Below, piece after piece: positions 12,285 to 12,530 of a stretch of 64,000 bases of DNA. The notes beneath the pieces were generated by a model. That model ran no database searches, had not been told where the DNA came from, and saw nothing but the letters and a program-made list of their open reading frames with translations. The stretch is taken from the IMG/VR virus record IMGVR_UViG_3300025141_012285, positions 1 through 64,000 of that record; one strand, written 5' to 3'. Position 1 is the first letter of the stretch. Each line of letters starts with the position of its first letter. The DNA comes from a virus. Both the position numbers and the translations under genes were made by a program.

Positions 12285-12530
12285 ATGAAATATTTAATAC
12301 TATTGATGTTCTCCGGCGTTGCATATGCCGATGATAAAAAAGAAGAGCCAAAAGTAGTTTATAAACAAAAGACCGAGATTGACTTTGAAAGTGTAGATGT
12401 GGTTGGAGAGTTGCTGAAGCCGCAAGGCTCTTTGGTTCTTGATAGAAAGAGAGCAAAGTTTAATTCAATGGTTTGGATCAGATCTGACTTTGACGATGAA
12501 ATGGACAAATCAATACAGGAGATAAAATGA
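12285..12530 (+). CDS. cglF: CglF/GltF-like adventurous gliding motility protein homologue
   Basis: signal peptide (AYA) followed by KTEIDFE..V.GEL.KP.G....R.....S...IR.DF.DEM..S..EI, matching the recalled Myxococcus CglF pattern. Confidence 0.7.
   Translation: MKYLILLMFSGVAYADDKKEEPKVVYKQKTEIDFESVDVVGELLKPQGSLVLDRKRAKFNSMVWIRSDFDDEMDKSIQEIK

Follow-up and report, generated by a model that had tools for sequence, protein, structure and literature searches.

A phage-borne GltF/CglF homologue in a fragment of an uncultured marine myovirus

The DNA analysed here is a window of 64,000 nucleotides, positions 1 to 64,000 of the IMG/VR virus record IMGVR_UViG_3300025141_012285, and is a fragment of an uncultured marine myovirus of ~200 kb. 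At 12285..12530 on the + strand it carries a gene for a protein of 81 residues, predicted to be an exported and largely unfolded linker, that is homologous to GltF (also named CglF) of the Agl-Glt gliding machinery of Myxococcus. The identification draws on the listing of open reading frames (ORFs), on a match to the NCBIfam model of the family (NF033764), on the identity with GltF proteins encoded in the glt clusters of metagenome-assembled genomes (MAGs), and on the ratio of nonsynonymous to synonymous change (dN/dS) among the phage copies. Judged by sequence, it is well supported that the phage protein is a GltF/CglF homologue, in the sense of a xenologue and not of an equivalog. We see about an even chance that this phage-borne, host-derived gltF xenologue supplies a protein that takes the GltF position in a Glt/Nfs-type machine of the host, keeping the linker supplied or under phage control. 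If this is right, the gene is a host clue for a widespread group of large uncultured marine phages, and what the phage carries is a structural component of a motility-type machine that spans the envelope and no enzyme of metabolism. Nature would also have set up an experiment on GltF, of all periplasmic components of Agl-Glt the one that is understood least. From the evidence below we infer that the protein is exported, that it binds in cells, which host it has and, with the least certainty, whether it sustains or jams the machine.

The gene, its family and its cellular relatives

The gene is a single ATG-started ORF of 81 codons plus the stop, with a Shine-Dalgarno sequence GGAGGA (12272..12277, + strand, read from the DNA) 7 nt 5' of the ATG. 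The first-pass annotation of this DNA, made from the letters, had described an exported protein of 81 residues; the ORF is real, with the start, coordinates and peptide it had given, and an export signal is predicted from the sequence. Residues 1-15 (12285..12329, + strand) consist of MK, a hydrophobic core and A-Y-A, after which cleavage is predicted, and include no lipobox cysteine. By inspection and with a hydropathy script this reads as a type I signal peptide, AlphaFold2 (AF2) places a helix at residues 3-11, and the protein is not a lipoprotein. The bacterial copies in the alignment also have a signal peptide ending in A-x-A ahead of Q-D. Because the signal peptide is of type I and has no cysteine, we expect a mature product of 66 residues that is soluble in the periplasm. 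An upstream ORF of 45 codons has its stop at 12281-12283, and the downstream ORF begins at 12527 in an ATGA overlap; this stop-start spacing and the overlap make the gene a link of a tightly packed, translationally coupled array on the + strand. A scan of 6800-15000 for promoters and terminators gave no more sites than shuffled sequences did (19 against a mean of 21.3; 6 against 5.5), and with counts at this level we leave the transcription unit unnamed.

The NCBIfam model NF033764 (gliding_CglF) matches the protein with an E-value of 1.7e-14 and 53.6 bits, aligning residues 15-80 with positions 18-88 of the 88 of the profile. A six-frame search of the whole record with the same model returns the same place, and none of 14 control genomes matches. 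The first-pass annotation had put forward a likeness to Myxococcus CglF along the whole length of the protein and had named, beforehand, a profile comparison with the CglF family as the way to check it; the comparison came out significant, over the entire mature part. No family of Pfam or PHROGs matches the 81 residues, and a tblastn search of 50,697 GenBank phage records found no relative of the protein. Among metagenome proteins, a word-indexed search gave 632 matches at E<=0.01, the 120 matches listed being 69-100% identical to the phage protein, and an exhaustive search of cluster representatives gave 501 clusters at E<=0.001. The contigs that carry metagenome homologues reach 198,918 bp, and several of the homologues stem from Tara samples.

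To find cellular relatives, one genome per prokaryote species was scanned with a single pattern, Y-K-x-[RKQ]-T-E-I-D-F, and the best 80 of 138 confirmed places were kept. All 80 loci lie in MAGs titled Myxococcota or Deltaproteobacteria, or in MAGs with plainly unreliable labels (e.g., Klebsiella, Enterobacterales). Among these best 80 of 138, the closest matches to the phage protein are those of UBA2957 (locus L047, 68% identity), SAT32 (L052, 67%), XB_MAG53 (L048, 64%) and UBA796 (L051, 62%). Of 401 evenly sampled Myxococcota genomes, 208 contain a match to the phage protein; SAT32 (67%) and XB_MAG53 (65%) lead, and the others listed stand at 59% or less. Each of these two best genomes has a single GltF match, which indicates one machine and not a Glt plus Nfs pair. 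As an observation on the databases, MAG records titled Klebsiella pneumoniae, Enterobacterales, Rickettsiales and Rhodobacterales carry Myxococcota-type glt clusters with a guanine-plus-cytosine (GC) content of 60-70% (L054, L069, L085, L100, L101, L109 and others), and the organism labels of these records look wrong.

The SAT32 locus shows where such genes sit. Its order is an OMP_myx_plus barrel, GltC, a tetratricopeptide repeat (TPR) protein of 1,039 residues in the GltD position, GltE, the CglF homologue, GltG, CglE and a choice-of-anchor-D protein, with profile E-values of 3.7e-66 for GltC, 8.9e-41 for GltE, 7.4e-16 (58 bits) for CglF, 7.7e-104 for GltG and 8e-29 for CglE. Homologues of these proteins recur across the 80 bacterial loci (GltG in 43, the GltD-position protein in 44, GltC in 37, GltE in 35 and CglE in 27), counts that are limited by the many loci ending at contig ends. 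Since their genes lie between gltE and gltG, the closest cellular relatives of the phage protein are GltF by position. The first-pass annotation had depended on a host with Agl-Glt genes, and the lineage of the closest relatives does carry a Glt-type cluster.

The phage protein can thus be set beside two kinds of GltF. Like the M. xanthus protein (GltF = CglF, MXAN_4868; NF033764), it is small and is predicted to be secreted by means of a type I signal peptide, and it matches positions 18-88 of the 88-position profile; in the gene list of Luciano 2011 (PMC3169522), as far as it concerns gltF, the M. xanthus protein appears with 89 residues, a signal peptide and no transmembrane segment. The GltF proteins of the marine MAGs (L047, L052, L048 and L051) share 62-68% identity with the phage protein over nearly its full length and, at 58 against 53.6 bits, have a similar NF033764 score; the mature part of the phage protein has no insertions or deletions relative to bacterial GltF. 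The setting of the genes differs. In the MAGs gltF belongs to a barrel-gltC-D-E-F-G-cglE cluster of 52-62% GC, whereas the phage gene is solitary, does not lie between gltE and gltG, and stands in a phage module of about 40% GC. A lone gene away from the glt cluster is what would be expected of a captured one.

Viral copies, selection and capture

The first-pass annotation had also proposed a survey of phage genomes for homologues, and 45 IMG/VR contigs were found to encode a relative; the window's gene order is common to 30 of them (L002-L030 and L033). In 4 of 30 loci the ORF selection favoured an antisense ORF over the GltF-like one, and there the gene is seen by tblastn. We estimated selection on the window and L002-L030, whose 30 coding sequences reduce to 24 distinct ones, over the last 60 codons, with synonymous divergence computable for 111 of the 276 pairs. 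The median proportion of synonymous differences (pS) is 0.78, near saturation, that of nonsynonymous differences (pN) is 0.13, and the median dN/dS is 0.063 with a maximum of 0.178. Such strong purifying selection across the phage copies rules out a chance ORF, and the saturation at synonymous sites indicates that the capture is old.

Residue conservation was counted over 79 bacterial and 24 phage copies. At 19 positions the commonest phage residue is the one that is near-invariant in bacteria (Y26, K27, T30, E31, I32, D33, F34, G41, E42, L43, K45, P46, R54, F59, N60, R66, E72, M73 and S76). Most of these residues are present in 100% of the phage copies, and E42, K45, E72, M73 and S76 in 62-92%. 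The sub-branch to which the window belongs departs from the bacterial consensus at residues 61-65 (P to S, L to M, I to V, K to W and L to I), and the host-type motif persists there in about half of the phage copies.

The phylogeny of the family was built from 114 of 126 sequences (125 loci plus the window, with identical copies and the 71-residue fragment L033 left out) and, at 81 columns, is poorly resolved. The main phage clade adjoins the sequences of UBA2957, XB_MAG53, SAT32 and UBA796, and the smallest supported set that includes the window holds 29 viral and 6 bacterial sequences (Shimodaira-Hasegawa-like approximate likelihood ratio test [SH-aLRT] 95). Two more viral groups lie elsewhere on the tree: L037-L046 (51-57% GC) inside another bacterial clade, and L031/L040/L042 together with L090. 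The viral label changes three times on the tree, and at least two of these changes are forced by supported branches. The other viral groups share almost no genes with the window phage and are separate phages. On L034, a 316-kb contig, the GltF-like gene (5959-6201) lies 1 kb ahead of the large terminase and portal genes, and on L038, a T4-like contig of 56% GC, it lies (6001-6264) behind a T4-type topoisomerase II gene. The forced changes on the tree and the unrelated gene contexts point to repeated capture: on this comparison of sequences, gltF has been taken up by phages more than once, in at least two lineages and probably in three or more. If the role proposed below is right, the repeated choice of exactly this linker of 60 residues argues that GltF limits or controls how the motor arm of the inner membrane is coupled to the outer-membrane complex.

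Some of these contigs show further features. The GltF-like gene of L040 (6007-6234) is on a viral contig of 33% GC and stands apart from the window's clade on the tree. L031 (5114-6670, - strand) and L045 (2746-3990, + strand) encode choice-of-anchor-D proteins resembling the one whose gene follows cglE in bacterial glt clusters, and that of L031 also matches the VWA part of the CglD model (E-value 6.3e-11); this gene may be a second capture from the same glt neighbourhood. Directly 3' of the GltF-like gene, L039 and L041 encode (6355-10137) a protein of 1,260 residues with an OmpA-like C-terminal domain, which is homologous to a protein encoded a few kb from gltF in the bacterial locus L118.

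Predicted docking, host and role

The AF2 model of the phage protein, made with 46 aligned sequences, has helices only at residues 3-11 (the signal) and 70-80, separated by an extended middle; its mean predicted local distance difference test score (pLDDT) is 71.9, and the 70-80 block scores best. The sections on GltF of a 2025 structural model (PMC11761067) describe the Myxococcus protein in similar terms, as largely disordered with a C-terminal helix. In that model GltF contributes a strand that runs parallel to one in the TonB-like C-terminal domain of the inner-membrane protein GltG (called TonB-CTD-like, for C-terminal domain, in the same source), the C-terminal helix fills a crevice of GltC, a TPR protein beneath the outer-membrane pore complex, and GltF bridges GltC to GltG and GltD. 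In M. xanthus, according to the GltF experiments of Luciano 2011 (PMC3169522), gliding requires GltF, GltF-mCherry is functional and found at focal-adhesion clusters, and GltD clusters are lost without gltF.

We predicted the complex of phage residues 16-81 with GltC and residues 540-654 of GltG from the SAT32 locus. It scores 0.81 (0.81, 0.81 and 0.80 in the separate runs), against 0.01 for the best of three docking controls; at least 68% of the contacts agree between runs, and the pLDDT of the scored partner, the phage protein, is at least 62. The mark used to judge such scores is reached by 58 of 80 solved complexes and by 2 of 110 mismatched pairs. A conserved strand-forming segment, residues 23-43 (12351..12413, + strand), is predicted to lie against the TonB-like domain of GltG, contacting its residues 554-593 and 637-654; Y26, K27, T30, E31, I32, D33, F34, G41 and L43 in this segment are invariant in all 79 bacterial and 24 phage copies. 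The C-terminal segment, residues 59-81 with the helix 70-80 (12459..12527, + strand), is predicted to fill the TPR crevice of GltC, with contacts to GltC 236-569 at an expected error of 0.6-1.2 Å that is smallest around F69. F59, R66 and F69 occur in 24 of 24 phage copies, and M73 in 88%. This model supports docking of the phage protein on the TonB-like domain of GltG and in the GltC crevice, in the same pose as that published for Myxococcus GltF, so that the complex prediction with Glt subunits suggested in the first-pass annotation speaks, in silico, for binding. Neither GltF nor the GltG domain has a solved relative by sequence (best E-value 0.43; none at E<=0.1), and the result therefore does not derive from a known structure of a homologous complex. 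The modelled contact with GltG resembles the pairing of TonB boxes, in which a short stretch in extended conformation joins the sheet of a TonB-type C-terminal domain as an additional strand. The phage ligand would differ from these: it would be a linker free in the periplasm, anchored a second time by a helix in a TPR protein, and would not be the plug of an outer-membrane transporter. It has no sequence relative in the PDB.

These results lead us to the following proposal. Phage GltF would be made during infection, leave the cytoplasm through Sec and lose its signal peptide. The conserved strand of the protein, residues 23-43, would pair with the TonB-like domain of GltG, while the C-terminal segment and helix (59-81) would fill the GltC crevice. 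A labile, unfolded linker would then be re-supplied once host gene expression fails, and the machine would stay assembled. All copies preserve both predicted interfaces, in keeping with a working linker; this role is the most likely one, and we rank it slightly above that of a competitive block. The textbook case of a phage auxiliary gene that re-supplies a short-lived part of a host machine is psbA of cyanophages, encoding D1. Like it, the phage gltF derives from the host, codes for one subunit of a large complex of that host and is under purifying selection across a phage group; unlike it, the subunit belongs to an envelope-spanning motor or transducer and not to metabolism. Phage GltF is a new, viral form of a known protein family, and also of something that phages are known to do, namely to take along components of host machines. 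The proposal is directly testable in Myxococcus xanthus.

The same contacts could serve to jam the machine. The phage protein would in that case be a competitive blocker at the GltF sites, which locks or uncouples the GltG arm and GltC; the gain could be to shut an energised envelope route or receptor to superinfecting phages, or to arrest movement. We regard this as possible, though rather unlikely. The docking result applies to it equally, only one small part of the machine is carried, and separate phage lineages have captured gltF. Moreover, the residues of the window's sub-branch at the predicted GltC contacts 62-65, including the K to W change at 64, are non-host ones, as if affinity had been tuned. 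There is also a precedent, in that Pseudomonas phages encode inhibitors of type IV pilus assembly for superinfection exclusion, products that are similarly aimed at a host motility or surface apparatus. Those are, however, unrelated small inhibitors and not homologues of a subunit, whereas phage GltF keeps both native interfaces. The copies with the host-type 61-65 motif and both interfaces intact fit a working linker at least as well, and none of the 45 viral copies is truncated or has lost one interface, although this would be the simplest route to a dominant-negative protein.

A different use of the protein is suggested by the distribution of the GltF-like segment in bacteria. Large bacterial proteins contain a GltF-like module of 60 residues: in P0184 and P0220 it follows VIT-VWA domains, and in P0197 it is embedded in a DUF4140/DUF4139 protein. 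P0149 and P0164 are further carriers, and among the carriers are proteins of 1,000-1,300 residues with no Pfam family; in all, a Pfam family is absent from 5 of the 8 long carriers. The module thus seems to be a portable docking module. P0184 and P0220 end, by inspection of their sequences, in a TonB-C/AgmX-PglI-like tail, and a module embedded beside such a tail is an independent hint of the same partner. The phage protein could accordingly be a docking tag, that is, a module binding TonB-like domains which is used with exported proteins of the phage to remodel the envelope and has no specific tie to Glt. The carriers just described fit this reading, as does the conserved order of the genes for exported phage proteins nearby, with a TlpA-like lipoprotein gene directly upstream in five related loci. 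We nevertheless consider it improbable. The phage copy is free-standing and nearly co-linear with syntenic GltF, at 65-68% identity, unlike the embedded modules; its second predicted interface is specific to GltC; and some related loci have the GltF-like gene but lack the VWA and protease genes. A hidden Markov model made from the diverse family alignment detects the module in no other protein of this phage.

The proposed role requires a host with a Glt-type machine. The closest GltF proteins are those of marine Myxococcota, and the phage shares with the same lineage the start of a transfer-messenger RNA (tmRNA) tag, two facts that together point to the host. The phage tmRNA (23887..24233, + strand; ARAGORN; Rfam RF00023, 113 bits) encodes the tag ANNNNHFESVRLAA, which begins with ANNNNHF, like the tags of the MAG lineage in which the closest GltF is found, and differs from them at its end. 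UBA2957 and SAT32 also have ANNNNHF, XB_MAG53 has ANNNDNF and DS_MAG67 has ANNNKHF; a pattern coding for ANNNNHF occurs in 4 of the 401 sampled Myxococcota genomes, SAT32 among them. Relatives of a phage lipoprotein with a VWA domain (described below), of similar size and 26-33% identical, are encoded in all five candidate-host MAGs. The most likely hosts are therefore small-genome marine Myxococcota related to the MAGs UBA2957, SAT32, XB_MAG53 and UBA796, the genomes of the candidate hosts measuring 3.5-4.2 Mb.

An improbable alternative is that the host is not a myxobacterium, the gene having come from Myxococcota long ago and now acting on another TonB/Tol-like system in a different marine host. 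The gap in GC content would agree with this, as would an old capture (the synonymous sites are saturated), and in NCBI one relative of the VWA protein bears the label 'uncultured Maribacter sp.'. Against it, MAG labels are unreliable, as the Glt clusters of 60-70% GC in records titled Klebsiella or Enterobacterales illustrate. The tag start is common to the same MAG lineage and rare in the phylum (the 4 of 401 genomes above), the relatives of the VWA lipoprotein are found in five of five of those MAGs, and the conservation of both GltF interfaces to the residue would be hard to explain in a host that has no GltG and GltC.

Several observations weigh against the proposal that phage GltF works in the Glt-type machine of a myxobacterial host. 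On the side of the family, its 53.6 bits are below the curated 90-bit equivalog cut-off of NF033764; but the SAT32 GltF, sited between gltE and gltG, is likewise under it with 58.0 bits, so the cut-off separates Myxococcus-like from divergent GltF and not GltF from other proteins. On the side of the host, a member of the Myxococcota is something we infer from the origin of the gene, the tmRNA tag and the VWA relatives. The tag pattern was compared inside Myxococcota only, the whole-length phage tmRNA matches those of the five MAGs only at its generic 3' end, and the GC content is 43% in the phage against 52-62% in the closest MAG loci. On the side of the machine, the 84,071-bp record, about 43% of a genome, has no other glt-cluster gene (in a blastp comparison of 110 phage ORFs with all ORFs of the 80 bacterial loci the GltF-like gene was the sole match). 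CglB was matched in none of the five candidate-host MAGs by a model that matched nowhere and so has no positive control, and GltJ gave weak partial matches of at most 54 bits in all five. With CglB unmatched and GltJ weak and partial, the machine of these planktonic bacteria may not be a gliding motor, and the phage may manipulate something other than the motility that the first-pass annotation proposed. On the side of binding, the changes at the predicted GltC contacts 62-65 and at the adjacent residue 61 could alter the binding predicted by the model. The docking partners come from a stand-in, the SAT32 MAG, with alignments of their own (22 and 21 sequences) and in a three-chain prediction, for which the calibration of the score holds only roughly. 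Solved TonB complexes already show strands pairing with TonB-type domains, and this may help the docking model. Finally, no result obtained here separates sustaining from jamming.

The viral nature of the record is much firmer. The contig has 84,071 bp at an estimated completeness of 43%, which gives a genome of ~200 kb. Its ORF at 58311-60107 is similar to baseplate wedge proteins, with 31.6% identity over 98% of the length to the one of Microcystis phage Mel-JY01 and 29.1% to those of Flavobacterium 'immuto' phages, PHROGs recognises PhoH and an endolysin-type domain among the window proteins, two tRNAs and the tmRNA are encoded, and the long ORFs are nearly all on one strand. That the gene is a neutral passenger, or the record, a metagenome fragment after all, a bacterial contig miscalled as viral, can be given hardly any weight: the baseplate wedge homologues occur in cultured myoviruses and, with the PHROGs matches, the RNA genes, the strand bias and the lack of glt neighbours, rule out a miscall, while a dN/dS of 0.063 over 24 distinct copies in conserved synteny does not suit a passenger.

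The repeated captures allow a broader reading, which we hold to be unlikely but worth stating: that capture of gltF is a recurrent phage strategy to control the proton-driven, Glt-type envelope motor of Myxococcota, with GltF as its control point, that phage GltF re-wires the link between the TonB-like GltG arm and the outer-membrane complex, and that the gene names marine Myxococcota as the hosts. If the reading is true, re-wiring could stop an infected cell from leaving its particle, let the machine run on when the host is shut off, or bar rival phages from an energised entry route, and the gene would be a host clue for abundant, globally distributed, uncultured marine myoviruses of ~200 kb. 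A literature search found, among the titles and abstracts listed, no paper describing a phage gltF or cglF, and the gliding and motility parts of a preprint on myxobacterial viruses (10.64898/2026.09.14.751636) name no glt gene.

Neighbouring genes

The most constant neighbour of the GltF-like gene encodes a conserved protein of 801 residues (9294..11699, + strand) that belongs to no Pfam, NCBIfam or PHROG family. It is found upstream in 23 of the 23 related loci with enough DNA, the fractions for neighbours given here counting only related loci with enough upstream DNA. The ORF at 11675 is upstream in 27 of 30 related loci. On the other side, the gene is followed by a variable cassette (12530-14200 of the window), whose genes differ among L002-L030, and then by the conserved genes at 14173, 16650 and 18059.

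Further upstream lie the genes of two predicted exported proteins. The first (7104..8114, + strand) is a lipoprotein with a lipobox L-L-S-C and a VWA/MIDAS motif D-x-S-x-S, recognised by these motifs and present upstream in 13 of 17 loci; the second (8126..8851, + strand) is a trypsin-like serine protease (Pfam Trypsin_2, E-value 2.8e-13) with a signal-peptide-like N-terminus, present in 17 of 21. Both are associates of the GltF-like gene by position only. A lipoprotein with a thioredoxin motif, C-x-x-C, and a lipobox is encoded at 23087..23659 (+ strand); this is the gene that the first-pass annotation had called TlpA-like, and a homologue stands directly upstream of the GltF-like gene in L015, L016, L022, L025 and L027. 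That annotation had joined the VWA lipoprotein, the protease and the TlpA lipoprotein with the GltF-like gene into one system, which finds no support beyond gene position. Of its overall reading, the phage-borne, true GltF/CglF homologue stands, by the profile match and the 65-68% identity to syntenic GltF, and the shared system with these three proteins has no such support.

A CglB-like nature of the VWA lipoprotein was not borne out either. The sole NCBIfam match at E<=0.01 is NF052240, a Bdellovibrio MIDAS adhesin, with 18.4 bits against a cut-off of 700; no CglB family is among the NCBIfam matches, and on this ground orthology with CglB was rejected; no Pfam family matches at E<=0.01. One of its 1,098 homologues carries the NCBI name 'vWA domain-containing protein'. 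Delivery of phage proteins to neighbours through TraAB exchange, which the first-pass annotation had considered, found no support: the TraA model NF033759 matched none of the five candidate-host MAGs, although, as it matched nowhere, this search has no positive control. The cargo of such exchange consists of outer-membrane lipoproteins, and the phage GltF-like protein has no lipobox. Other genes of auxiliary type in the window encode a B12-binding radical SAM enzyme (14942-16663), PhoH (27736-29073) and a NUDIX hydrolase (8852-9304).

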